The notes: generated by a model not told the origin, from the letters alone. A stretch of DNA of 64,000 bases from Candidatus Magasanikiibacteriota bacterium (GCA_018650645.1 JABIFP010000005.1:35486-99485), one strand, 5' to 3'. Shown: positions 11,146 through 64,000, counted from the first letter of the stretch. Numbers and translations are program-made.

Positions 11146-11823
11146 ATGACCGTGATGATAAAGAAGTGCACAGTTATGCACTTTTTTTATAGAAGTGAAA
11201 GAAAATCTGCTATAGTGCGTACTAGTATAGGTAATACAATATTTGTGACACACGCGGTTGCACAACTATCTGATGAGCAAGTAATTCCACATATTCTTAA
11301 AGACAGGGATTTATTTGCTGTGCTCGTGCAGCGATATGAAGAGAAACTCAGAAGATATATTCGGCGCATTATTGCCGTTTCAGAAGAAGATATTGAAGAT
11401 ATCTTACAGGAAGTGTTTATCTCGGTGTATAGAAACTTGCATGGATTTGATACGTCGCTTTCTTTTTCCTCTTGGATATATAGAATAGCGCATAATTATG
11501 TGCGATCACTGCACAGAAAGCGTTCAGTACGGCCAATTTCAGTCGAATTAACGCTGGATCACAGTAAAACAATTGCGGATTCAATCGATATAGCAAAGAC
11601 GTTTGATCAACAGGTGTTATCAGAGAATATTGCTACAGCAATGGCAAAGCTTCCGGATAAGTACAAAGAAGTGCTTATTTTGCAGTATTTAGAGCAAAAA
11701 GACTATAATGAAATAGCAGACATTATCAAAAAGCCTCCAGGCACGGTTGGAACCAGAATAAATCGAGCCAAAAAGAAGCTCAAAGCCCTATTAGCCCAGT
11801 TACCAGAGTCTTATGACCAATGA
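11146..11823 (+). CDS. ECF-type RNA polymerase sigma-70 family factor
   Basis: Region 2 (FISVYRNLHGF...WIYRIAHN) and region 4 (YKEVLILQYLEQKDYNEIADII...GTVGTRINRAKKKL) motifs; the true start may be internal. Confidence 0.8.
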   Translation: MTVMIKKCTVMHFFYRSERKSAIVRTSIGNTIFVTHAVAQLSDEQVIPHILKDRDLFAVLVQRYEEKLRRYIRRIIAVSEEDIEDILQEVFISVYRNLHGFDTSLSFSSWIYRIAHNYVRSLHRKRSVRPISVELTLDHSKTIADSIDIAKTFDQQVLSENIATAMAKLPDKYKEVLILQYLEQKDYNEIADIIKKPPGTVGTRINRAKKKLKALLAQLPESYDQ

Positions 11824-33572: not shown

Positions 33573-33618
33573 AAGTGATATCTGTGATATTACATGTGCA
33601 TCGCAATCGGGCGATTGA

Positions 33619-33990
33619 ATGGAGAGGGCAATGGGAGAGATGTTTGCCGAGTTCGGGCGGCTTCACTATGAGGTCCGGGAGTTGCGGCGGGATGTGCTGT
33701 ATATGCTTCGTCAGCTGGATGTACGCGGGTACACCACGCCGCGGGGTTTGGCACGCAAGTTTCGCAGCTGTGCGCGCGGTGCTGCGCGTCTGCACTTCGG
33801 TATGCGCTGGCTTTCGGTGGAACAGCTCCATCGCGGGACCGTGTTTTACGTTCCGTACATTGGGACATGCGTGTATCGCGGAGAATGTTCTGCGATGGTG
33901 GTTCACAGCGTGCTGTGGAAGTACCATCACGGTGATGTTGTTCGGCTGCCTGGTTACCAGCAGGTCAGGACCTTGCTGCCGCTGCCGTAG
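33619..33990 (+). CDS. Small hypothetical protein (GC-rich island 1, ORF A)
   Basis: High GC3 codon bias; GGAGAGGG lies 5-8 nt before the second ATG; no family recognised. Confidence 0.3.
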   Translation: MERAMGEMFAEFGRLHYEVRELRRDVLYMLRQLDVRGYTTPRGLARKFRSCARGAARLHFGMRWLSVEQLHRGTVFYVPYIGTCVYRGECSAMVVHSVLWKYHHGDVVRLPGYQQVRTLLPLP

Positions 33991-34125
33991 CCTACACGGC
34001 TGAAGATGAAAGGGGGAGGCGGCCAATGGCCGCAGGAGGGATGGGCGCTCGTAGGAGCGCCTTTTCTTTTTGCATTATTCTTTCTCTATGCTATTCTTTT
34101 CGCAGGATGTGACAGGGAGGAGAAG

Positions 34126-34548
34126 ATGTCCAATCACAGGGTGACGATTCGGCTTGTAGAAAAGCCGCGGAAGGGGCACACGCAGGTCCTGATCGAGGAT
34201 GGGTCGATTCGCGTCGACCCGGAAGTGCCGCCGTTGTATGTGCAGCAGGGAAGAGCCTTGCTCGCGGAGGTGTCGGTGCAAGTGCCAAAGCCGCATCAGG
34301 CCGAGTTTGGGCATGTAGCCGTTTCCTGCATCCAGTGGGGCATGGCAGCTCAGCTGGAAGGCGTGCAGGATGGGGCTCCAAACACTCCGGCTTTCTATTC
34401 CGTAGAGATGCGGGATGTCTGGGTTGCTGCCGGTAAGGCATTGGAGGAAAATAGGCAGCGCCGCGAGCGGGAGGCTTTGCAGCGAGGCCGTGAGCATCAT
34501 GCCTTAGTTTGCGCAGTGCGGGCAGAGCGCAATGGGAATGAGCCCTGA
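34126..34548 (+). CDS. Small hypothetical protein (GC-rich island 1, ORF B)
   Basis: Strong SD GGGAGGAGAAG before ATG MSNHRVTIRLVEKP...; high GC3. Confidence 0.3.
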   Translation: MSNHRVTIRLVEKPRKGHTQVLIEDGSIRVDPEVPPLYVQQGRALLAEVSVQVPKPHQAEFGHVAVSCIQWGMAAQLEGVQDGAPNTPAFYSVEMRDVWVAAGKALEENRQRREREALQRGREHHALVCAVRAERNGNEP

Positions 34549-34561
34549 GCATCAACCAAAA

Positions 34562-41295: not shown

Positions 41296-41511
41296 TTGCG
41301 TACTCCTGTTGGCTCTAGATATTCTGGGGCTGCAGAAGGACACAATTGTATCGGGGGTAGAGGAGTGATAGTGAGATTACTCTGAGGGATTGTTCTTGTG
41401 CCTCTCTTGTCGTGGTAAGTCCACTCGTTAGTTCGGGTGGGCTTTTTGTTTGACGGATATTCGTTTAATCAGTACTCTGTAATAGCATTTGCTGATGGAG
41501 GAGAAAATCAG

Positions 41512-41736
41512 ATGGAAATGCAGGCGATTGTGAAGTACGAGCACCTGTCGGTGCTCAAAGGGATGCTCGCTGATGCGAAGACGCTTGAGGCGTTGCGCAA
41601 ACTCGCGGGTGTTTCGCTGCAGGAACTGCTCACTGGCATGGCATGGTTCAAACTTGAGGCATCGTCGCAGGAAGACGAGCGACGGGACTTGGGCAGCGTG
41701 ACTCTGGGCGAGCTCAGGCAGATGCTCGCAGAGTAG
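41512..41736 (+). CDS. Small hypothetical protein (GC-rich island 2, ORF A, ~74 aa)
   Basis: GGAGGAG SD 9 nt upstream of the ATG; high GC relative to flanks; no family recognised. Confidence 0.3.
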   Translation: MEMQAIVKYEHLSVLKGMLADAKTLEALRKLAGVSLQELLTGMAWFKLEASSQEDERRDLGSVTLGELRQMLAE

Positions 41737-41824
41737 GGCTAAGTGGACCGAACCAACCTATCCACCGTTGACGAGAGGGCAACGATCCTGTATTCTCTTG
41801 TGACGAACACAAGGGGGACATTGG

Positions 41825-42061
41825 GTGTTTGAAATGCGAGTACATGCTCGCGATCCATATCAGGTAAAGATTGTGGTGGGGACGGCCGGGCCGCTCGGTA
41901 GCAATTGGGAGCCTGATGTGACGCAAGAAGAGGACGGTGTTGTTGGCACGATTCGTATTACTGACCGCCGCCTTGCCAGGCAGTTTCTGCAGGATGCCAT
42001 GGTGGTAGCCCGTGCGCTGCCGAGTCAGATCACCGTCATCGGCGACCTGTCGCTGAACTAA
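41825..42061 (+). CDS. Small hypothetical protein (GC-rich island 2, ORF B, ~78 aa)
   Basis: AGGGGGA SD 7 nt before GTG 41825 (an ATG lies at 41834); high GC3. Confidence 0.3.
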   Translation: MFEMRVHARDPYQVKIVVGTAGPLGSNWEPDVTQEEDGVVGTIRITDRRLARQFLQDAMVVARALPSQITVIGDLSLN

Positions 42062-42099
42062 CTTCCCAATACAATGGGGCATTGAAGGAGGTATTGGGA

Positions 42100-42137
42100 A
42101 CAAACAAAAAAGACGCATGTGTGCGTCTTTTTTGTTT
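42100..42137. terminator. Bidirectional rho-independent terminator (AAGACGCA-tgtg-TGCGTCTT flanked by A and T tracts)
   Basis: Lies between island 2 (+) and the end of the Nudix gene (-); near-identical to the terminator at 51268..51302. Confidence 0.75.
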
Positions 42138-42717
42138 ATGTAGAGAAAAGATTTTTTAACGATTCTTTTTTCTCTGTATCAACTTGCGCTTCCCAGAAGT
42201 AACGCTGTATTTCTTTTTCGTAAAACTGTGGTTCTGTTCCAATCTTGAGTAATTCTTCAAAACTTACGGGATAGAGTGAAATTTTTTCACCAGCATCGAG
42301 GTTTAATTCAGCTACATTTGTAATCCCCTTTGCAATAAAGGTGTAAACGGCCCATTCAATCTTTGATATTGGTTGTTGTGCGTCCAAGAGAATATATTCT
42401 TTTGCGCTGTATCCGGTTTCTTCAAGAAGCTCTCGTTTTGCTGCTGTGAGAATATCTTCCCCTGCATCAACGCGACCACCTGCAGCACCAATGAAGGGCG
42501 CTTTTCCGGGCTGTTCTTGTTTTGTTAACAATATCTTTCCATCATCTGTAATTGCAAAAACAATCACGGTGTCTGGTCGCTTTAGTTTCTCAAATATCGT
42601 CGTTGAGCCATCATACATCTTTTGCTCCCATTGATACACATCAAATATTGCACCAGAGAAAACCTTTTTTGCATGTGCTGGAAGTGGTTGTGAGGATTTT
42701 GGTCGTGGAATGTCCAT
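42136..42717 (-). CDS. Nudix hydrolase (ADP-ribose pyrophosphatase-like)
   Basis: Nudix box GGRVDAGEDILTAAKRELLEETG; start set at MDIPRP (ATG at 42715-42717) because the longer ORF would run through the tRNA-Leu gene. Confidence 0.8.
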   Translation of the reverse strand: MDIPRPKSSQPLPAHAKKVFSGAIFDVYQWEQKMYDGSTTIFEKLKRPDTVIVFAITDDGKILLTKQEQPGKAPFIGAAGGRVDAGEDILTAAKRELLEETGYSAKEYILLDAQQPISKIEWAVYTFIAKGITNVAELNLDAGEKISLYPVSFEELLKIGTEPQFYEKEIQRYFWEAQVDTEKKESLKNLFST

Positions 42718-42756
42718 GTGTTTTTTTTGCTCGCCTGCCGAAGCTTTAGCGTAGGC

Positions 42757-42843
42757 TGGTGCCGTGGGCGGGACTCGAACCCGCGCGAGGTTTCCCTCAA
42801 GGGATTTTAAGTCCCTCGTGTCTACCAACTCCACCACCACGGC
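42757..42843 (-). tRNA. tRNA-Leu (anticodon TAA), type II with long variable arm, CCA encoded
   Basis: Minus-strand sequence GCCGTGG...CCACGGC-A-CCA; anticodon loop CTTAAAA; T-loop GGTTCGAGTCC; 87 nt. Confidence 0.8.
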
Positions 42844-42895
42844 GTGAAGTAGGGACAATATAGCAGAAAGAGGTAACTCAGGCAAGAGGGCGGTG

Positions 42896-42910
42896 GATTG
42901 ACAGAAAGAG
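42896..42910 (+). promoter_or_regulatory. Promoter-like motif GATTGACAGAAAGAG (-35 TTGACA), 17-nt spacer, -10 TTAAGT, upstream of island 3 ORF
   Basis: The identical 15-mer recurs at 44549..44563 in the same position relative to another GC-rich small ORF; followed by SD TAAGGAGG and ATG 42954. Confidence 0.5.
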
Positions 42911-42953
42911 GAGGGTTTGGTTAAGTTACTATAGAAACCATAAGGAGGTTCTG

Positions 42954-43322
42954 ATGAGAAATGCTCTGGTAGACGATAAGACGTTGCCGCTGTACGATCA
43001 AAGTGATGTGGCCATGTTTGGCTGCCCGCTCTGTGAGTGTAGTGATGCGTCGTACCGGGTTGTGGATGTGTGGGAAGTTGCGGGCAACCCAATTGTCCAG
43101 GTGCTTGTGCACCTCGATGCGGAGTGCTCGGGGCGGTTCCGTCAGCGTTGCGATGCAATGTTTTGTCTGGAGTCCCCGCGGACACACCCATGCGGGATTT
43201 GCTCCAGCAGGGATTTCGATCATCCTGACGACGCGGAGCTGCCGCGGCCCACGCCACCACGATCGTCTAGGCACAGGCACACGGGCTCTCCGCCCAAGGT
43301 TCCTGCCGTCCTTGATGACTAG
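42954..43322 (+). CDS. Small Cys/His-rich hypothetical protein (GC-rich island 3)
   Basis: Perfect SD (TAAGGAGGTT, 6 nt spacer); CPLCEC...HLDAEC...HPCGIC suggests a zinc-ribbon-like arrangement; Pro/Arg-rich tail. Confidence 0.4.
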   Translation: MRNALVDDKTLPLYDQSDVAMFGCPLCECSDASYRVVDVWEVAGNPIVQVLVHLDAECSGRFRQRCDAMFCLESPRTHPCGICSSRDFDHPDDAELPRPTPPRSSRHRHTGSPPKVPAVLDD

Positions 43323-43402
43323 TTCTGGCGGCGTTCGGTTCTTCGCGCGTCGCCCTGAGTATATATACGTATATTCAGGGAGGAGGATGCGAAGAATCGA
43401 AT

Positions 43403-43440
43403 AAAAAAAAGAGACTGCATAGCGCAGTCTCTTTTCGTTT
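43403..43440. terminator. Bidirectional rho-independent terminator (AGAGACTGC-atagc-GCAGTCTCT)
   Basis: Perfect 9-bp stem flanked by AAAAAAAA and TTTTCGTTT; lies between island 3 (+) and the end of the permease gene (-). Confidence 0.75.
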
Positions 43441-43446
43441 GTAATA

Positions 43447-44505
43447 TTAATTGTGTTGCAGTTCTTTATTGTAATAATGATCGTACATGGTAACAACTGC
43501 AAGGAAGAGTGACATAAGCACCGGCCCAATGACGAATCCAGAAATACCAAAGATCATGAGCCCACCAAGAGTAGAAAAGAGTACTAATAGCGGATGCATT
43601 TGTGTGTCTTTTCCAATAAGTGGTGGTCTGAGTAAATTATCAATGTTACTGATAATTACTGCGCCCACAATAAGAATGGTAAGTCCTTGCCATGTGCTGC
43701 CTGTTGCCAGCATGATCACACCAGCAGGGAACCATACAACAAACGATCCAATTGCTGGAATAATAGAAAGAATCGTCATAACTACTCCCCAAATCAGTAC
43801 CCCTTCTACGCCGGTAATGGCAAAGAGAATTGCACCAAGCACACCCTGAATTCCGCCAATAATAACGGTACTTTTCAGTGTTGCTCTTGCTGTAGAAGTA
43901 AATCGACTATAGAGCATTTTTTCATACGTGTCTCCAAGAGGAGAGAGGTGCATGAGCCTATCAAGCATGCGCTTTCCGTCTTTGAGGAAATAGAAGAGGG
44001 AATAGAGCATGAGGAAAGAAAGGAACAGGAACCGTAGTGAATTGGATGTGAGTGCTTTGACACTGGCAAAGATTGTAACTGAAAGCGATTTTGCTGCGCC
44101 CGCTGCATATTCTTGCCATTGCGCTTGAATCATATCGAATACCGGAGCTGCAAATGATTGCTGCAGCCTGGTGGTAAGTTCTGCTGCGCTTCCAAACATC
44201 TCGCCTGAAGCAATTTGTGTATAAAGGACTGCCGATTCTTGCACTAAGAGAAGTGAAAGCAAAATAAGTGGCATAAACAGGAGCACAATCACGAGTAGCA
44301 CAGTAATTGCTGCACTGGCTGATTTGATTTTGATATGTTTATCAATCCACAAATATAGTGGATAGAACATAACCGCGACAACGGCCGCCCAAAAAATTGG
44401 ATAGGCAAATGGACGAAGCAGATACAGGGCCATGAGTCCAAGTAGGATGATAGTACCTACAAAGAACCCAGATTGCATCCGCGCAAAGCTAATGCTTTCT
44501 TTCAT
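43447..44505 (-). CDS. AI-2E family (PerM/UPF0118) transporter
   Basis: 8 TM helices and the family-typical FAYPIFWAAVVAVMFYPLY...IGGIQGVLGAILFAITG...WFPAGV pattern; start set at MKESISF (ATG at 44503-44505) to avoid the extension that overlaps island 4. Confidence 0.75.
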   Translation of the reverse strand: MKESISFARMQSGFFVGTIILLGLMALYLLRPFAYPIFWAAVVAVMFYPLYLWIDKHIKIKSASAAITVLLVIVLLFMPLILLSLLLVQESAVLYTQIASGEMFGSAAELTTRLQQSFAAPVFDMIQAQWQEYAAGAAKSLSVTIFASVKALTSNSLRFLFLSFLMLYSLFYFLKDGKRMLDRLMHLSPLGDTYEKMLYSRFTSTARATLKSTVIIGGIQGVLGAILFAITGVEGVLIWGVVMTILSIIPAIGSFVVWFPAGVIMLATGSTWQGLTILIVGAVIISNIDNLLRPPLIGKDTQMHPLLVLFSTLGGLMIFGISGFVIGPVLMSLFLAVVTMYDHYYNKELQHN

Positions 44506-44548
44506 AGGGTGAAGATAAGAATATTGATGTGAGTATAGCACGGATGGG

Positions 44549-44563
44549 AGATTGACAGAAAGA
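44549..44563 (+). promoter_or_regulatory. Promoter-like motif GATTGACAGAAAGAG (second copy), 17-nt spacer, -10 TAGGTT
   Basis: Identical 15-mer to 42896..42910; precedes the island 4 ORF. Confidence 0.5.
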
Positions 44564-44593
44564 GTAATTAGTGGTAGGTTCAGGGTGCGTTTC

Positions 44594-45115
44594 ATGAAGC
44601 CCAGAAGGGAGGGCAGAATGCTGAAGAGTTTGAACAGGAAGAGGAACGGGGAGTACTCACCACCAGTGATGGGGGTCCTTATTCTGCTTGTAGGGGTGTT
44701 TGCCTTCATGCTCGGGAGGGAGCAGGGCTTTTCAGAGACCAAAACTCCGGAGCAGAAGCTCACGCGGCAACGTGCTGTCGGCTACCATCGTCTCAACAGC
44801 GGACTGGAGAATGGCTCCTGCCGCAAGAAGAGCGACTGGCGGCGCTTTCCGGGCGAGTGCATCACCGTATGCACAACGACGTCCGGCATGGCCATGGTCA
44901 CCGTTCACGAAGCAGATGACTGCAAGAACGGACAGTTCGACGGGCTGCGTCCGACACAACTGCAGATGTTGCAGACCAACCTGAACGAGTGCGGCATCTT
45001 CAACAGGTGGGCAACGGACAACCAGTGTCGGCTGGTCTGCCCGCTCGGTCGTGCCCGCTTTAGCCTTCCGCAGCACATGTGCGACAAGTTCGCAGATCAG
45101 CCACCGGAAGGATGA
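44594..45115 (+). CDS. Small membrane-anchored/secreted Cys-rich hypothetical protein (GC-rich island 4)
   Basis: N-terminal TM/signal-anchor PVMGVLILLVGVFAFMLG followed by a domain with 10 Cys; alternative start ATG 44618 is preceded by SD AGGGAGGG; high GC3. Confidence 0.4.
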   Translation: MKPRREGRMLKSLNRKRNGEYSPPVMGVLILLVGVFAFMLGREQGFSETKTPEQKLTRQRAVGYHRLNSGLENGSCRKKSDWRRFPGECITVCTTTSGMAMVTVHEADDCKNGQFDGLRPTQLQMLQTNLNECGIFNRWATDNQCRLVCPLGRARFSLPQHMCDKFADQPPEG

Positions 45116-45247
45116 TCACAACCTCTTGAGTCGGGCGCCCAAGGCGTCCGGCTCAACCAATATATGCATCCCCATGCATTATTTTTTTTGTTTCCATATA
45201 GCGTAGGGCATGGTATACTTTTCTCGTATATTTTTGCCTGTTTTTTT

Positions 45248-46243
45248 ATGAAAGAACCAACATATCGCTCAGCCCTTTCTCATGGGTGGAATATTTTCTG
45301 GGACCACAAGCTATTGTGGCTATTTGGTTTCTTTGCTGCCTTTTTAGGGCAAATGGGACTCCTCGATATAATTACACAATTGAATTTGGCGCCAAAGCAA
45401 TACACCATGTATGAACCGATTTCGAATCTTCCAGAGATTATTGCATTTATTATTGCAACAGTGAAAGCACTTCCATGGGATGCGGGAAGTATGGTGTGGT
45501 CACTGTGGTTATTGATTTTCTTTGGTGGAGCAGCGCTGTTATTAGTATTCGTATCAGTCACTTCACAAGGGGCATTGATTCACGGCATTGGGCAATCACT
45601 TAAGGGTCGTAAAAAGAAACATATCGATGTATCAAAAGCATGGCATGCTGGAACCGGACATTTTTGGCGCCTATTCTTTTTACATATTGCAAAAAAGGTA
45701 TCGCTATTTACCGTAATGGTAATTGCCGGGCTTGCAGCATACAGTTATGGTATGAGCGGCGCACCACTTGATGCTGGATTATTTTATGCAGCACTCATTT
45801 TGGCAGTAGCAGTCGGTGTAATCACTTCATTCTTGCTCATTTATGCAGCAGGGTATGTCGTTATTGAAGAGTATTCGTTTGGTGAAGCTATTAAGGCAGC
45901 CTGGGCACTCTTTAAAGATCACTGGCTCGTCTCTTTAGAAGTGGCTGCGATTATGGTGCTTGTGAATATTCTGTTTGCTATTGTCTCTGCCGCAGTATTC
46001 CTATTGTTTGTTGGAGAAATGGCTATCATTTTGGCAGGATCACTTGTACTTAGTGCGGGTGCGCTGTATACCGGTATGCTGATTTTTGGTTCATTACTAT
46101 TTGCGACATGTTTGGCATTCTTTGGAAGCTTGCTGACTGTATTTTCAACATCAACATGGATGTATTTATTTGCAACAATGCATAAAAAAGGAATGAAGAG
46201 TAGAATTCATCATACGTTTGCCCGCCTGCTCAAACGTCGTTAA
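45248..46243 (+). CDS. Polytopic membrane protein (paralog of 60088..60909)
   Basis: About 7 TM helices; N-terminal SHGWNIFWDHK...FGFFAAFLG resembles DSWNLCKKN...IGALLGVS of the other copy. Confidence 0.55.
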   Translation: MKEPTYRSALSHGWNIFWDHKLLWLFGFFAAFLGQMGLLDIITQLNLAPKQYTMYEPISNLPEIIAFIIATVKALPWDAGSMVWSLWLLIFFGGAALLLVFVSVTSQGALIHGIGQSLKGRKKKHIDVSKAWHAGTGHFWRLFFLHIAKKVSLFTVMVIAGLAAYSYGMSGAPLDAGLFYAALILAVAVGVITSFLLIYAAGYVVIEEYSFGEAIKAAWALFKDHWLVSLEVAAIMVLVNILFAIVSAAVFLLFVGEMAIILAGSLVLSAGALYTGMLIFGSLLFATCLAFFGSLLTVFSTSTWMYLFATMHKKGMKSRIHHTFARLLKRR

Positions 46244-51267: not shown

Positions 51268-51302
51268 AACAAAAAAGACGCACATGGTGCGTCTTTTTTG
51301 TT
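51268..51302. terminator. Bidirectional rho-independent terminator (AAGACGCAC-atg-GTGCGTCTT flanked by A and T tracts)
   Basis: Near-identical to the 42100..42137 terminator; lies between thrS (+) and the 415-aa gene (-). Confidence 0.75.
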
Positions 51303-52549
51303 TAGCGTAAGAAGTTAAGTATTCTTCTTTTTATAGATGGTTTTGGAGCGTGTACATTACGCTTATTTGGTTCCATGTCCCGGATAAACATCATTAGCGC
51401 TTTGTAGTTCTCATCAAGAACAACCTTCTGTGCTCGTTTTTCAGAGCGTCTACCTTCTGCTCTATTGGTAAATTCTGAAATGTGAATCCCATATATTTCC
51501 ATAATCTTCTTTCGCGCCATATTTGCAAGATCATTCGGTGGTACGAGCTGCGATCGACGTTCTCTTCCTCTTGCTATGAATCCTCTAATATCTTCTCTTG
51601 CTTGCAGTGTGAGCGCTGTCTGATGTAAGAATCCTCTGGCTTCATTTGCAGCGCGCAGGGCTTCTACTTTGTGGTTATATCCTTGCTGGTTGCTTTCTTT
51701 TATCGCTCGCTCGCGCATTTCTCTATAGACCTGTTTTTCATACGCTGTAAGCTGATCTGCTATAGCAGAATACGCGGTTGCTGCAGTATCAAGTGCTTGC
51801 TGAATTCCAGCCAGATGTTCTTGTTTTTGCACTTGCTCCTGTGATCCATCAGCATCTTTTGTACGAATTACGGTGACTCCAGGTTCTTTTTGTTCAGCAG
51901 GTGTCATAGAAACGGGAACTTCAACCATGCTTTTTAGCAGTGCTGTTGTCTCATGCATTTGCTGCATTTCTAGAGGATCGGGTTTCAATTCGTAAATGGG
52001 TTTTTCTGTAATTTGTTCGGCAAATTCATTCCACGCATCATAAGTGGCAGCATGTTCAGCATCTATTTTTCCTTGCTCTTCCGCCAGTTTATATGCTTCT
52101 ACAAGTGCTTCGGCTTGATCAGAAAACCCTTGTTGCTCTTCGGTTATTAAAGTAACTTCGACTTCTCTAGGTGTTGTTGGTACAAGATGAGTGGTTGCTT
52201 CTACAATATCATCCAGATTATCTGCAATCGCAGCCCATTTTGCAGTGCGCTCCATTGCTGAAAGGGTAAGGTTCTCTTTAATAAGAGCCGAGATCTCTTG
52301 CACACTTAATCGTAACGCTTGTGCCTGACTGCTAGGTAGTGATTCTATAGAAGAGAAGAGCTCTTTTGCATGAGCCAGTGCCTGTTCTTGCATTTGGGTA
52401 GCCTGAAGCTCTTGCGCTTCAGAATCTTGCGTATCTTTAAAAACCTCCATTGCTTGGTGCGGCGCTGTAAATTCTAATTTTCTTGCTGCATCACCCATAG
52501 TGCACGTAGTATAGCATTTTTTATAGGAGTTCGACAGTTGCTGACGCAT
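51302..52549 (-). CDS. Hypothetical coiled-coil protein (415 aa)
   Basis: Long ORF with Gln/Glu/Ala-rich heptad-like composition; 29-nt overlap with the upstream 1348-aa gene; no family recognised. Confidence 0.5.
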   Translation of the reverse strand: MRQQLSNSYKKCYTTCTMGDAARKLEFTAPHQAMEVFKDTQDSEAQELQATQMQEQALAHAKELFSSIESLPSSQAQALRLSVQEISALIKENLTLSAMERTAKWAAIADNLDDIVEATTHLVPTTPREVEVTLITEEQQGFSDQAEALVEAYKLAEEQGKIDAEHAATYDAWNEFAEQITEKPIYELKPDPLEMQQMHETTALLKSMVEVPVSMTPAEQKEPGVTVIRTKDADGSQEQVQKQEHLAGIQQALDTAATAYSAIADQLTAYEKQVYREMRERAIKESNQQGYNHKVEALRAANEARGFLHQTALTLQAREDIRGFIARGRERRSQLVPPNDLANMARKKIMEIYGIHISEFTNRAEGRRSEKRAQKVVLDENYKALMMFIRDMEPNKRNVHAPKPSIKRRILNFLR

Positions 52550-55500
52550 TTCCTCCTTCTCCTATCTTATCAAATTTGAGCCTAAATATTTTACCTGGCA
52601 TAGTTTCGTGAGGAACACCTGCAATTAATAGGTCAACTGTTATGTCGGCTCTAATTTGGTCTTTAGTAAGTCCAGTTTTCTCTGCAATATATTCGGTAAT
52701 ACATCTAATTGGATTTCCGCCAGCGGTAAGAATTACTTCACCTTGGTTTTCTGCAATATCTTTACTCAGGAATTGTTTATGTTTTTCCATACCGTGTGCA
52801 GAAAAGGCTCGCGCTTTTACGGTGCTGTCTTTGGCTGCAAACCATGGGGAATGAGGGCGAGCAGGCCGTGCAAATTGTACAATGCCGTTTGCAATGTTAA
52901 ATACGACCAGGCGCAATGCCTTACCGGTCTTTGGAGAAATGTAATAGGTGACATCGCCAACAGAAATGCTTTCTCCTTCTCTTAGTTCTAATGATGCCAC
53001 CTCCGTTTCTGCTTCAGCCTGTGTTTCTTCTATTTCGGTTTCAGCTTTTTGCTCAGATTCTGCTTCTTCTGCAATCTCTACCAGACGATCAACTCGCTCT
53101 TCTGGCATGATAAATTCAAACGATGTCGCACCATTTTTTTGAATATCAGCGTAGATACTGTATTCAAAGCCAGGAAGAACGCGTATATCGTTCAGTTCAG
53201 ACTTTCCTTCAAGCCGCCGCATAATTACCGCATGCAGTACTGCATCTACGGCTTGTTCATGTGCGGCTTTTGGAGTCATATCTGGCAAGCGAACAATTTC
53301 TCTTGTGAGATATTTAATTGCTGCAAGGCGAATTCCTTCACCTTTTTTCACGGTAATTTCGTGATAGCTTTTTGTGGATTTTTCTTTCTTTGCTTCTGTA
53401 ACTTCTACCGGTGCTGCAGGTTCTGGTTCTAAAGGATCAGTGTCTGTAACAATTTCTGGTACGGGTAATGGTGCTGGCGTCTCTGGCGTAGCTGCATCTA
53501 ACGGAGGAAGTTCAGCTTCCAGCGGTACGAGAGCGTCAAGAGGGTCTTTTCCTGGCGCGGCATTGACAATCGGTGCTGCTTCCGGCACACCGGCGTCTTG
53601 CGGTGCTGTCTCAGGAACACCGGCAGGCAATTCAGTCGTTACGTTAGCATCCGCAGCGGTTGGTTTGGCAGCATCAGGCGCTTTGGGAGTCTCGGCACGT
53701 TTCATTTGCGTTACAGCTGCCCGTGGTGCATTGTCAGCAGGTCTATACGGTTCTGAATCTTGTTTCATTAATGCAGAAAGTGCTATAGACCAGGCAAGTG
53801 TTTTGATAAGGAAACCATGTTTCTTCTTAATTTTTTCAAATAATCGTCCTATCAGACCTCGCTGTTTTTTTTCTGGAGCAGACTCTGCGTGAACCTCAAC
53901 TTTTTTTGGAGATGTTGGCACAAAATCAGCTTCTGTAGCAGCTGCTTCATGAGCTTCTGGAATAGCATGTGCCAATGAGTCAGGAATCACAAGTGCCGAT
54001 TCTGTAATTCCCGTTTGACTCGCCTGGACGGTGGTCTCTTCTTCTAAATGGACAGCTCCAGAATCTGGATCAATGACGGAGTGATAAATTGTCACATCAA
54101 ATCCCTTGAGTGTGTCTTGCCATATCGATGCAGGAATGTCTTGCGATGCTCCTAATAGTGGGTTTGTTGCATTCTGTTGATTGCTTTCTCTTGTAAACAA
54201 TAGTACCTCGTGCGTTGTTGGGTGCACAAACTTCCATACAGTTGGAAATTGTCGTGTTCTGCGGGTATCACTACTTATAGATACTTGTGGGACATTCCGC
54301 TGCCAAGATGTGAGTACCGCAGGAGTAATTCTGAGCCATTTTTTTCTCATCAAGAACGTTTCTAATGGTTCTTTTTCCCCATCTTTCAGAGCTATTTCAT
54401 GGGGTGTTGGGTTGGCAATATCTTCAAATTGGATATGTTGTTTGGTCGTTCCACTTTGTTTTACATCATAAACAGAATATGATCGATACATCTTTGATTG
54501 ATGGGGTTGTATTGTTTTTCCTTGCACATTAATCGAGGGCGCCTCTACAGCAGCCTCAGAATAAACGGCAGCTACACGAATAGGGGGTTCATCTCCAACC
54601 TTATATGTTGCTGTAGTGATATATGTATCAGGCATGAGTCCTCCTGGAACGAGCGTTCCCCTTTCTATTGAACGCTGAAGATCTGGAGCAATAACTCTCC
54701 ATCCAAGTTTTTCTAATTCTGAATGCAGCAAGGCTGTATCTCCCTCTCTTACATTTGCATATTCTCCTTTAAGTGGCGGCATGTTCTCTGCCTCCTGGAT
54801 TGGATGAAACACTTGCTCTGCAAATTTACCAAACTTTCCACTTTTTGTAGAAATAGTACTAAGATTTTCAGAAACCATGACCCGTGTTGGTACTTCTTCA
54901 AGAACTCCGGCCTCTTTAAGTTCTGCTCCTTTTTGATGAATCAGGGCGCGCGCTTGAGCCAGCGTATCTGCTGCAAAAACGTATGTTTCTTCTTGTTCAC
55001 TTCCTTCAAAAAATATAATGCGTGCCACAAATTGAGTGAGATCGGGAATGTCCTCTGGACCTTGAATGTTTACCCATTCTTTAGTTCCAGCTGCAAGCTC
55101 AGCTTGTTTCATGACACGTTCAATCCCATGCTGAATATCAACTTTAACTTTCTCCGCATACTGCATGTTTTGTTTGAGTATACCGGAAAGCTCAACAATT
55201 TTGGTCGTATACATACTGAGCGGCCAGGGTTCTCCAGATCCATCTGGTGATGGACGCATTTTGCCTTGTAGCTCTTCTAGATCACGCTGCAGAGCATCAA
55301 AGTTTCCTCTTGTTTCATCAGGGGCTTGTGTTTTATATTTCTCTGCTTGCTTCGATAGTCCTTTAAGTACTGGTGCAAACACGCTATCCCACTTAAATGC
55401 GTTTTCTGTTTCTATTTTTCGCAGCTCAGCTAATCGATCAAAAAGATTAGGTAGCGTAAACGCTTGTTCATACAATTGCTGAATCTTTTCTGCATGATTT

Positions 55501-62772: not shown

Positions 62773-63772
62773 ATGTTTCTACCAGTTGATCGATTTGCGC
62801 ATAGAGTGCAGCAAAGTCGCCATTATTATGAATGTGTTCTGTTGCTTGTTCACTAAGCTTGCTGATGTTGAGTTCTGTTCCTCGTTTACTATCTTCCAAA
62901 AAGTCTTCAAACGATTTATTATCGTCAACATTTTCTCCGCGAGAGATGAGTCGATTGTAGCGCACCTTGGTGTCAGCATCAATACTTACCAGAACAAATT
63001 CCCCGGCATCTTTAATATGTGCAAAGTCGCCCTCGCGTCTAATTCCTTCTACTACCATAATGGATTGATCGAGTTGCTCAATATCAGCGCGCATGGTTTT
63101 AGACAGAATATCTTCACCAAACTGTTCGCAGAGCGCGAGGCATAATTCTTGCAGGGATTTACGTTTGTGCGGCTCATGCAAGCGGTCTAACACGTCTCGC
63201 AAAATATTTGAACTCCTATACACGCCTGCTCCGTATCGGCTTTCTAAATATGCTGCCGCTGCTCCTTTTCCACTTCCAATGTGCCCAACAATACCAAAGA
63301 TAATCCGTTTTTTGGCTTCTTTTGTAAAGGTATTGTGTGCGTCTTCCATCAAATAAACGTCACGGATGCCTGCAGCAATCATTTGTTGCCAACACGGTTC
63401 GCAGCACCACCAGTGACCCCATAAATAGATGTCGGCACCCTCTGCATCATGTTCTTTTTTTGCAGCGTCTTTGAGTGCGGCTGGTTCTGAATGATTTTTT
63501 GGATGACACCCCTCGCATAAATCATAACCCTGCCCAGTAGGGATGCCGAGTTCTTTTCGTTTGCATCCGTGGTTGTCGTGATAATCACTTCCGTTTGCTC
63601 CCATGCCAATAATTTTACCATTCTTCACCATGATAGATGCATTTGGGTAATGCTTATCGAGTGAATGCGTTTCTGCATACGCCTTTGCCATGGTCATGAA
63701 CGGATCCGAAAGTGGCGTGAACTTGAATGCACGGCCTTTTGGGATGTAGGGGTAGGCAATGTTAGCGAGCAT
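62756..63772 (-). CDS. Fusion protein: N-terminal dCMP deaminase domain plus C-terminal P-loop (nucleoside/nucleotide kinase-like) domain
   Basis: Zn-binding HSEPAALKDA...CEPCWQQMIAAGI (CMP/dCMP deaminase) followed by IIFGIVGHIGSGKGAAAAYLESRYG (Walker A). Confidence 0.7.
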   Translation of the reverse strand: MLANIAYPYIPKGRAFKFTPLSDPFMTMAKAYAETHSLDKHYPNASIMVKNGKIIGMGANGSDYHDNHGCKRKELGIPTGQGYDLCEGCHPKNHSEPAALKDAAKKEHDAEGADIYLWGHWWCCEPCWQQMIAAGIRDVYLMEDAHNTFTKEAKKRIIFGIVGHIGSGKGAAAAYLESRYGAGVYRSSNILRDVLDRLHEPHKRKSLQELCLALCEQFGEDILSKTMRADIEQLDQSIMVVEGIRREGDFAHIKDAGEFVLVSIDADTKVRYNRLISRGENVDDNKSFEDFLEDSKRGTELNISKLSEQATEHIHNNGDFAALYAQIDQLVETYAGTR

Positions 63773-63783
63773 GAAAATTCTAT

Positions 63784-64000
63784 TTATTTGGTGAACTTTT
63801 CGTGTGCATCTTCTAGCAGATATACTTGTTTAATGCCAGCCTTTTTCATTTCATTCCAGCACGGTTCGCAGCACCACCAGTGACCGTGTAAGTAGAGGTC
63901 GGCACCTGCCATTGCTTTGCCTGCTTCTGTTGTGGCGCGGATTGCGGTTGGTTCAGAATGGTTTTTTGGATGACACCCTTCGCAAAGTTCATATCCTTCT
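63784..64000 (-). CDS. dCMP deaminase paralog (stand-alone; N-terminal part lies beyond the window end)
   Basis: Minus-strand translation ...HGHWWCCEPCWNEMKKAGIKQVYLLEDAHEKFTK* is nearly identical to the deaminase domain of the neighbouring fusion gene; nucleotide identity is also visible (ccagcacggttcgcagcaccaccagtgacc). Confidence 0.65.
   Translation of the reverse strand, partial: EGYELCEGCHPKNHSEPTAIRATTEAGKAMAGADLYLHGHWWCCEPCWNEMKKAGIKQVYLLEDAHEKFTK

Follow-up and report, generated by a model that had tools for sequence, protein, structure and literature searches.

The window analysed here, a 64-kb stretch of chromosome from an uncultured Candidatus Magasanikbacteria bacterium (candidate phyla radiation (CPR)/Patescibacteria; ~41% GC), contains four GC-rich islands at 33.6-45.1 kb, which together carry six small open reading frames (ORFs), all on the plus strand. 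Islands 3 and 4, the subject of this report, flank an AI-2E family transporter gene, and upstream of the single ORF in each (I3 and I4, respectively) lies the same 15-nt sequence, GATTGACAGAAAGAG (hereafter the 15-mer), which includes an exact TTGACA hexamer. The 15-mer occurs exactly twice in the window, both times on the plus strand, and its placement is non-random. Ten contigs from the JGI, ENA and Logan assemblies match the window at 100% through the islands and the sequence on either side, for as much as 21 kb; given this identity, we rejected an assembly artefact as the origin of the islands. The island proteins are also found in an NCBI Magasanikbacteria metagenome-assembled genome, where they are labelled hypothetical, and population variation in these proteins amounts to a single amino-acid variant, Y to N in I4. 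The two islands and the gene between them are laid out as follows (aa, amino acids; SD, Shine-Dalgarno site; GC1, GC2 and GC3, GC content at the first, second and third codon positions).

42896..42910, plus strand: 15-mer copy 1, GATTGACAGAAAGAG, consisting of 2 nt, TTGACA (42898-42903) and the first 7 nt of the spacer (box B)
42898..42927, plus strand: putative sigma-70-type promoter of island 3, TTGACA, 17 nt, TTAAGT (42921-42926), or 18 nt, TAAGTT
42954..43322, plus strand: island 3 ORF (I3), 122 aa, 59% GC, with SD AAGGAGGT at 42942-42949
43333..43402, plus strand: long imperfect hairpin without a U-tail at the 3' end of the island 3 GC tract (RNA fold)
43407..43435, both strands: bidirectional intrinsic terminator, common to island 3 and the convergent AI-2E gene
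43447..44505, minus strand: AI-2E family transporter gene of native composition (Pfam PF01594, E = 1.9e-50)
44550..44564, plus strand: 15-mer copy 2, GATTGACAGAAAGAG, with TTGACA at 44552-44557, then box C
44552..44580, plus strand: putative sigma-70-type promoter of island 4, TTGACA, 17 nt, TAGGTT (44575-44580), with a TGn extension
44618..45115, plus strand: island 4 ORF (I4), 165 aa, 58-59% GC, GC3 0.75, with SD GGGAGGG at 44607-44613
45126..45190, plus strand: 3' end/terminator of island 4, with a GC-rich hairpin at 45126-45156 and, after it, a small hairpin with U-run (~45159-45190); RNA fold z = -5.7

At both copies TTGACA is followed after 17 nt by a -10-like hexamer (TTAAGT in island 3, TAGGTT in island 4), and each promoter-like site is followed in turn by an SD (AAGGAGGT and GGGAGGG) and a GC-rich ORF (42954-43322 and 44618-45115), as an earlier prediction made from the sequence alone had described. 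The distance from the 15-mer to the start codon is 58 nt in island 3 and 68 nt in island 4, and TGGT stands in the same register at both sites (42918-42921 and 44572-44575), 20 nt from the start of the -35. Both copies reported in the original prediction are real and the first coordinate it gave is right; the second copy lies at 44550-44564, one base off the predicted 44549-44563. That the two islands flank an AI-2E permease gene is confirmed by the Pfam match of the intervening gene (E = 1.9e-50).

The prediction had regarded the position of the 15-mer relative to the ORFs as the real signal, and two kinds of test support this. Among the 17 exact TTGACA sites in the window (136 pairs), the flanks of the I3/I4 pair are identical over 9 nt, and in each of the remaining 135 pairs the identity extends over 0-4 nt. 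When the 110 nt upstream of each of the six GC-rich ORFs are compared, I3 and I4 share 15 nt and the other 14 pairs share 6-9 nt; when these six regions were shuffled, none of 3000 shuffles reached 15 nt and 0.07% reached 14. The 9-mer purine box CAGAAAGAG has three copies in 64 kb against 0.78 expected, all of them within the I3 and I4 upstream regions, and the pattern ACAGAAAGAGK with up to one mismatch has 7 matches against 2.3 expected, four of which fall at 42863, 42901, 44555 and 44634. Outside the 15-mer, the similarity of the two promoter regions is near background.

In and around the two islands there are also a tRNA gene, promoter-like sites of neighbouring genes and further purine boxes:

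42757..42843, minus strand: tRNA-Leu(UAA), transcribed away from island 3 (ARAGORN, Rfam)
42857..42885, minus strand: promoter-like site of tRNA-Leu, TTGCCT, 17 nt, TATATT, with TG (consensus scan)
42864..42873, plus strand: purine box copy A, CAGAAAGAGG, within the tRNA-Leu promoter spacer and 38 nt 5' of box B
44532..44560, minus strand: putative AI-2E promoter, extended -10 TGCTATACT with a weak -35 TTCTGT (44555-44560), as read from the sequence
44634..44644, plus strand: purine box D, ACAGGAAGAGG, one mismatch, within the 5' end of the island 4 ORF
45191..45219, plus strand: promoter-like site of the downstream membrane-protein gene, TTTCCA, 17 nt, TATACT, with TG (consensus scan); native

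The tRNA-Leu and island 3 promoters are back to back, with 12 nt between their -35s, and the plus-strand -35 and 15-mer of island 4 overlap the -35 position of the putative AI-2E promoter. The repeat of CAGAAAGAGG in island 3 had been described as a tandem duplication; its two copies, at 42864 and 42902, are direct repeats set 38 nt apart and do not lie in tandem. Native promoters in the window have the form TTGACA, 17 nt, TATAAT or TATAGT, that of tRNA-His being ATTGACAGAGAAA.

The I3 product is the predicted Cys/His-rich protein of 122 aa with CxxC pairs: it contains 8 Cys and 5 His, among them a CPLC (residues 24-27) and a CGIC (80-83), and ends in a Pro/Arg/Ser/His-rich tail. Examined as a candidate zinc ribbon, it has both CxxC knuckles and no Pfam, NCBIfam or PDB sequence match, and its single-sequence AlphaFold2 model is unreliable (predicted local distance difference test, pLDDT, 48.7). 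I3 is probably cytoplasmic and, as a guess from its sequence features, its two CxxC knuckles would resemble those of a zinc ribbon and its basic tail would be disordered. In island 3 the GC-rich tract begins ~25 nt inside the ORF, and the fold of 43320-43440 at the end of the island has a predicted energy of -60.7 kcal/mol (z = -8.8). For I4, a membrane-anchored protein of about 165 aa with some 10 Cys had been foreseen; the length and the N-terminal transmembrane helix (~residues 15-35) stand, and the Cys count is 8, in a C-terminal domain. The I4 single-sequence AlphaFold2 model (pLDDT 46.7) is likewise unreliable, being confident only in the helix at residues 17-35, and the functional guess for I4, made from sequence features, is a protein anchored in the membrane whose 8-Cys domain would lie outside. 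Its GC1/GC2/GC3 values of 0.56/0.45/0.75 are a clear coding signature. GC content in island 4 rises gradually from ~44580, and some pipelines use an alternative I4 start at 44594 (173 aa).

Islands 1 (33575-34560) and 2 (41445-42100) are built like islands 3 and 4, each with two orphan ORFs of 58-60% GC, SD sites and GC hairpins:

33631-33990, plus strand: I1a, 119 aa
34126-34548, plus strand: I1b, 140 aa
41512-41736, plus strand: I2a, 74 aa
41834-42061, plus strand: I2b, 75 aa

Island 2 has promoter-like sites of the form TTGACG, 17 nt, TAYTCT, and its 74/75-aa pair is of the size of a toxin-antitoxin pair but has no family match. An alternative start of I1b at 34006 would add a lipoprotein-like N-terminus (... 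ILFAGC) encoded by 34006-34125, a stretch that is T-rich and overlaps a terminator-like hairpin. A further GC-rich stretch (53400-53700, 56% GC) is no island; it lies inside a 1348-aa minus-strand gene without a Pfam match.

The GC content of the six ORFs spans 0.579-0.603, a smaller spread than expected from binomial sampling (P = 0.011). GC3 in these ORFs is 0.63-0.75, compared with 0.28-0.41 in eight neighbouring native genes, and their codon preferences (CTG, CGG, CCG, ACG, GTG) are very unlike those of native genes; with GC3 of 0.64 and 0.75, I3 and I4 are compositionally foreign genes, as had been proposed. All six ORFs have an SD-like purine run just 5' and a hairpin just 3', on one strand.

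No homolog of I3 was found in a word-indexed search of 5.8 billion clusters, and none of I4 in the word-indexed search or in a full HMMER search of 1.84 billion representatives; for the proteins of islands 1 and 2 and the L016 protein described below, orphan status was judged only from family libraries. Searches of Pfam, PHROGs, NCBIfam and PADLOC yielded no match of weight for any of the six island proteins, the best being PF12236 for I2a (E = 0.016) and one PHROG of unknown function for I3 (E = 0.0078), both below any cut-off. A PDB sequence search returned nothing for I3 and for I4 only 'Sugarwin' at E = 0.21. Phage records and viral contigs contained no relatives of I3, I4 or I1b, the three proteins searched there. 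The alternative frames and the antisense strand gave no Pfam matches, and with Rfam, whether at the gathering threshold or at E <= 1, the tRNA was the sole match in the island neighbourhood. Nor are the island proteins related to one another: all-against-all BLASTP of the six gave nothing below E = 0.48. The suggestion that I3 and I4 belong to one family therefore fails, since they match each other only at E > 4 and neither has a homolog or family match.

The closest species-level relatives, located through the ribonucleotide reductase beta subunit, are likewise Magasanikbacteria (L016, 86% identical; L017 and L018, 83%). The gene order of L018 matches that of the window (transketolase ... RuvB, nrdA, nrdB, one gene, tRNA-Leu, AI-2E, membrane protein, PilB); the AI-2E products are 61% identical, and the comparison places a conserved start, MKEPTYR, at 45249 in the membrane-protein gene 3' of island 4. 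L018 is the sole relative with matching gene order at islands 3 and 4, and neither island is present in it: the corresponding spacers measure 56 bp (tRNA-Leu to AI-2E) and 147 bp (AI-2E to the membrane-protein gene) and do not contain the 15-mer. At the site of island 1 and its accompanying ArsC-family gene L018 has 27 bp, and at the island 2 site after nrdB 157 bp. Island 1 is missing from L016, L017 and L018, and island 2 from L017, which has a plain terminator after nrdB, and from L018.

In L016, a non-homologous GC-rich orphan ORF (within 11190-11690; 125 aa, 57% GC, GC3 0.75) directly follows nrdB at the island 2 site, with ATTGACA, 18 nt, TAGGGT on its 5' side and a GC hairpin on its 3' side. 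Because the cargo there is different, we regard the nrdB-downstream spacer as a recurrent landing site; the comparison suggests an insertion hotspot with cargo turnover. In the window the nrdB stop is followed by ~150 non-coding nt (41296-41445) ending in YTTGTCGTGG and a terminator, and this motif is found downstream of nrdB in three relatives (L016, 11036-11150; L018, 11036-11190; L027); the stretch may be a conserved 3' untranslated region element or a small RNA. Some more distant CPR loci also contain small GC-rich ORFs, for example an 84-aa lipoprotein-like, Cys-rich ORF in L026 (12543-12797, minus strand), which has several Cys and a lipobox, INGC, that is clearer than that of I1b.

The tRNA-Leu(UAA) gene of the window is inverted relative to L016, L017 and L018, where it shares the strand of nrdB, and a NUDIX gene (42136-42843 interval of the window) stands in place of another gene in L016 and L018, one that we take from its sequence to be undecaprenyl-diphosphate-synthase-like. 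The interval from nrdB to AI-2E has therefore been rearranged in this lineage. In some pipelines the NUDIX gene is called as a longer frame of 351 aa that runs through the tRNA and lies antisense to island 3.

The original prediction had also allowed that the two genes belong to a mobile family, and here the search was negative throughout, turning up neither a mobility gene nor an att-like repeat or attC-type site. Neither the genes called at 33-54 kb nor those in the 9 kb upstream of the window include an integrase or transposase, the islands are not bounded by terminal repeats, inverted or direct, the window holds no tRNA-derived att repeat, and the flanks of the islands have no motif in common besides the 15-mer. 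The 9.2 kb upstream of the window (L216) contain neither a GC island nor the box. A literature search for such GC-rich islands in Magasanikbacteria, or in other CPR bacteria, turned up no paper.

The explanation we favour, with a probability of about one half, is that islands 3 and 4 go back to two independent insertions of moron-like orphan cassettes, which have an extended -35 or operator box in common. Each island would be an autonomous unit composed of a sigma-70-type promoter, a strong SD, one GC-rich orphan ORF, a GC hairpin lacking a U-tail and a U-tailed terminator, and both units would have entered intergenic spacers in a part of the chromosome that is conserved. Through the 15-mer, as an extended -35 element or operator, the two genes would receive one common transcriptional input, which may be coupled to the divergent promoters of tRNA-Leu/NUDIX and AI-2E that the box overlaps or abuts. 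We read the 15-mer in this way because the purine box CAGAAAGAG is found nowhere else in the window; moreover, the sharply bounded 15/15 identity, with near-background similarity outside it, agrees better with a site under selection than with a duplication decaying neutrally. From the sequence we infer that the promoters are active, that a protein binds the box, that I3 and I4 are co-regulated, which is plausible, and that both ORFs are translated. The GC of the promoter stretches themselves is native-like (0.37-0.48), and their arrival along with the foreign DNA is therefore not required.

Several observations weigh against this explanation. The motif was chosen post hoc, and it is absent upstream of the other four GC-rich ORFs, in islands 1 and 2. 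The promoter-like sites have an exact TTGACA and a 17-nt spacer and are nevertheless weaker than had been implied: both -10 hexamers match TATAAT at only 3/6 positions, the in-register TTAAGT of island 3 lacks the key A at position 2, and a consensus promoter scan listed neither site, that of island 3 being missed because of its 3/6 match. No relative was found with the same cassettes as islands 3 and 4, I3 shows no GC3 excess (0.64, against a GC1 of 0.65), and the gene list of the JGI long contig has no gene at I3. The recurrence of the 15-mer by itself says little, because the window holds ~20 independent exact repeats of at least 15 nt, mostly within unrelated genes; such repeats are thus commoner than the one or two per 64 kb first assumed. 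Finally, G follows TTGACA at 7 of the 17 sites, and this over-representation of TTGACAG(A) raises the chance estimate to ~0.01.

These last points lead directly to the possibility that the match is coincidence, that is, that islands 3 and 4 simply have ordinary promoters or promoter-like sequences with a consensus -35, and that nine extra identical bases in purine-rich intergenic DNA were noticed by repeat-hunting. Most of the ~20 long repeats are meaningless, TTGACAG(A) is frequent among TTGACA sites, similarity beyond the 15-mer is near background, and shuffling of the whole window gave two matches to the 15-mer in 3 of 100 shuffles, so that by this measure its significance is only mild. The motif was also sought outside the window. 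A metagenome scan for the 15-mer returned at least 120 loci, with none from this genome among the matches listed, and the search for the motif in relatives that the prediction had proposed as a check yielded two matches with up to two mismatches in 523 kb, about the chance level. One relative, L047, has a 14-nt match, TTGACAGAAAGAGG, in its dnaA-dnaN spacer (11292-11306), beside DnaA boxes (TGTGGATAA), where no promoter of a downstream gene is possible; this match is probably chance, and the motif is thus not always 5' of a gene. We nonetheless consider coincidence unlikely for islands 3 and 4, where the 9-nt flank extension is an outlier in the anchored tests, none of the 3000 upstream-region shuffles reaches 15 nt, and a third exact 9-mer together with a one-mismatch fourth falls in the same two short regions.

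Alternatively, the motif could serve the divergent promoters on the minus strand, those of tRNA-Leu/NUDIX and AI-2E, whether as operator or as upstream or -35 element, and where it stands relative to the GC-rich ORFs would then be secondary. The 15-mer of island 4 overlaps the -35 of what looks like a good extended -10 promoter (TGCTATACT) for AI-2E, box A lies inside the tRNA-Leu promoter spacer, and the motif stretch has native-like GC. Yet the boxes take inconsistent positions when counted from that strand (~-25 to -39 for AI-2E; ~-46 to -60 and in the spacer beside the -10 for tRNA-Leu), both copies line up exactly with TTGACA and TGGT when read on the plus strand, and the equivalent spacers of L018 lack such a motif, so we hold this to be improbable. 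Much the same goes, somewhat more strongly, for the idea that the 15-mer is a footprint of arrival: the end of an unrecognised mobile element, a preferred target, or a promoter from a common GC-rich donor or phage. The near-equal GC of the six ORFs suggests one source, they are found together on a single strand in no more than 12 kb, and the GC-rich orphan ORF of L016 stands at the island 2 site behind ATTGACA ... TAGGGT. The pattern TTGACR, 17-18 nt, TAGRRT, like the island promoters themselves (TTGACR, 17-18 nt, TAGGTT / TAGGGT / TAYTCT), resembles the Streptomyces promoter consensus that has been reported, a possible pointer to a high-GC donor. Against such a footprint, the motif is found upstream of only two of the six ORFs and in native-like, AT-rich sequence outside the GC-rich tract, no integrase, transposase, bounding repeat, tRNA-derived att repeat or attC-like site was found in the regions searched, and I3, I4 and I1b have no relatives in viral contigs or phage records. 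Least probable of all is that the GC-rich tracts are non-coding, being structured RNAs or inert foreign DNA in which open frames are a by-product of high GC. The poor structure models (pLDDT 48.7 and 46.7), the missing GC3 excess and missing JGI gene call at I3, the open antisense frames and the lack of homologs by which coding could be judged evolutionarily would all suit this; but all six ORFs sit between an SD-like purine run and a hairpin on one strand, I4 has its coding signature and transmembrane helix, the tracts have no Rfam match at E <= 1, and the alternative frames have no Pfam matches.

The two cassettes look like gene acquisition of the ordinary sort, in which both genes probably have a regulatory box in common, and not like a system of a new kind. 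Should the box prove functional, a pair of orphan genes that are unrelated and were acquired recently would share a control point beside tRNA and transporter genes, which would make a small, concrete case of a reduced CPR genome domesticating foreign genes. A better lead than the motif may be the broader pattern: six orphan ORFs of ~59% GC at four intergenic sites within 12 kb, together with the non-homologous ORF at the hotspot of a sister lineage, offer a handle on gene gain in episymbiotic bacteria. An apparently recent transfer without a donor homolog is mildly puzzling, and does not overturn current understanding. As a long shot, the islands could reflect an unrecognised route of gene gain, in which promoter-equipped, uniformly GC-rich single-gene cassettes, perhaps from a GC-rich host or its mobile elements and encoding small secreted, membrane or metal-binding symbiosis proteins, enter intergenic hotspots, with the 15-mer as delivery adaptor or end.

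Three other elements of the window were recorded. Bidirectional terminators at 42102-42137 and 51268-51304, 9 kb apart, have identical 16-nt arms (AAACAAAAAAGACGCA ... TGCGTCTTTTTTGTTT) and different loops. A palindrome-centred repeat of ~23 nt, TGTATAGACTAGTCTATACAAAC, occurs at 592-614 and 702-724, 110 nt apart and 5' of a Band_7 gene (795-1541), and looks like a pair of operator sites. Near the right end of the window, at 63393-63980, there are exact repeats of 12-25 nt with a period of 467 nt, which suggests a large tandem repeat inside coding sequence.

Among known systems, integron cassettes resemble the islands in that the island ORFs are small, mostly orphan and co-oriented, with an imperfect hairpin after each; unlike cassettes in an integron, the islands are dispersed, not arrayed, and each has its own promoter. 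We rejected this identification, as no RYYYAAC / GTTRRRY core pair lies 30-120 nt 3' of the six ORFs on either strand and no integrase was found. A tRNA-targeted island was likewise rejected: the window holds no tRNA-derived repeat, no integrase was found, and island 3 lies at the 5' side of tRNA-Leu. The box itself is comparable to an operator placed over a sigma-70 -35 in a regulon, with a sharply bounded, identical block covering the -35 and spacer of two promoters, extra boxes nearby and divergent promoters alongside; it differs in having neither dyad symmetry nor regular spacing, and in occurring at two promoters only.

With acquired orphan genes (genomic islets) the islands share atypical composition and codon use, restriction to one lineage and short hypothetical products. 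Bacterial orphan genes are usually AT-richer than the host genome, whereas the island ORFs are ~18 points GC-richer than theirs and tightly uniform in GC, and I4 lacks a donor homolog among 1.84 billion representatives though its GC has not drifted toward that of the host.

The closest model for the cassette structure is the phage moron of Hendrix and colleagues, which, in the definition quoted in PMC2920897, has its own promoter and terminator and deviant GC and is inserted between conserved genes. Measured against that quoted definition, islands 3 and 4 differ in lying in the chromosomal core (nrdAB, tRNA-Leu, AI-2E, PilB), with no prophage or nearby phage genes, and in carrying genes found in no phage record or viral contig searched. 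They are alike in consisting of a single extra gene between conserved neighbours, with what appear from sequence to be its own promoter-like site and terminator, at a GC of 0.58-0.60 against ~0.41, and in the occupation of a hotspot by different cargo in related genomes (island 2 here, the ORF after nrdB in L016). The known kind to which we assign them is that of acquired orphan gene cassettes with their own promoters, of which islands 3 and 4 would be a new example.

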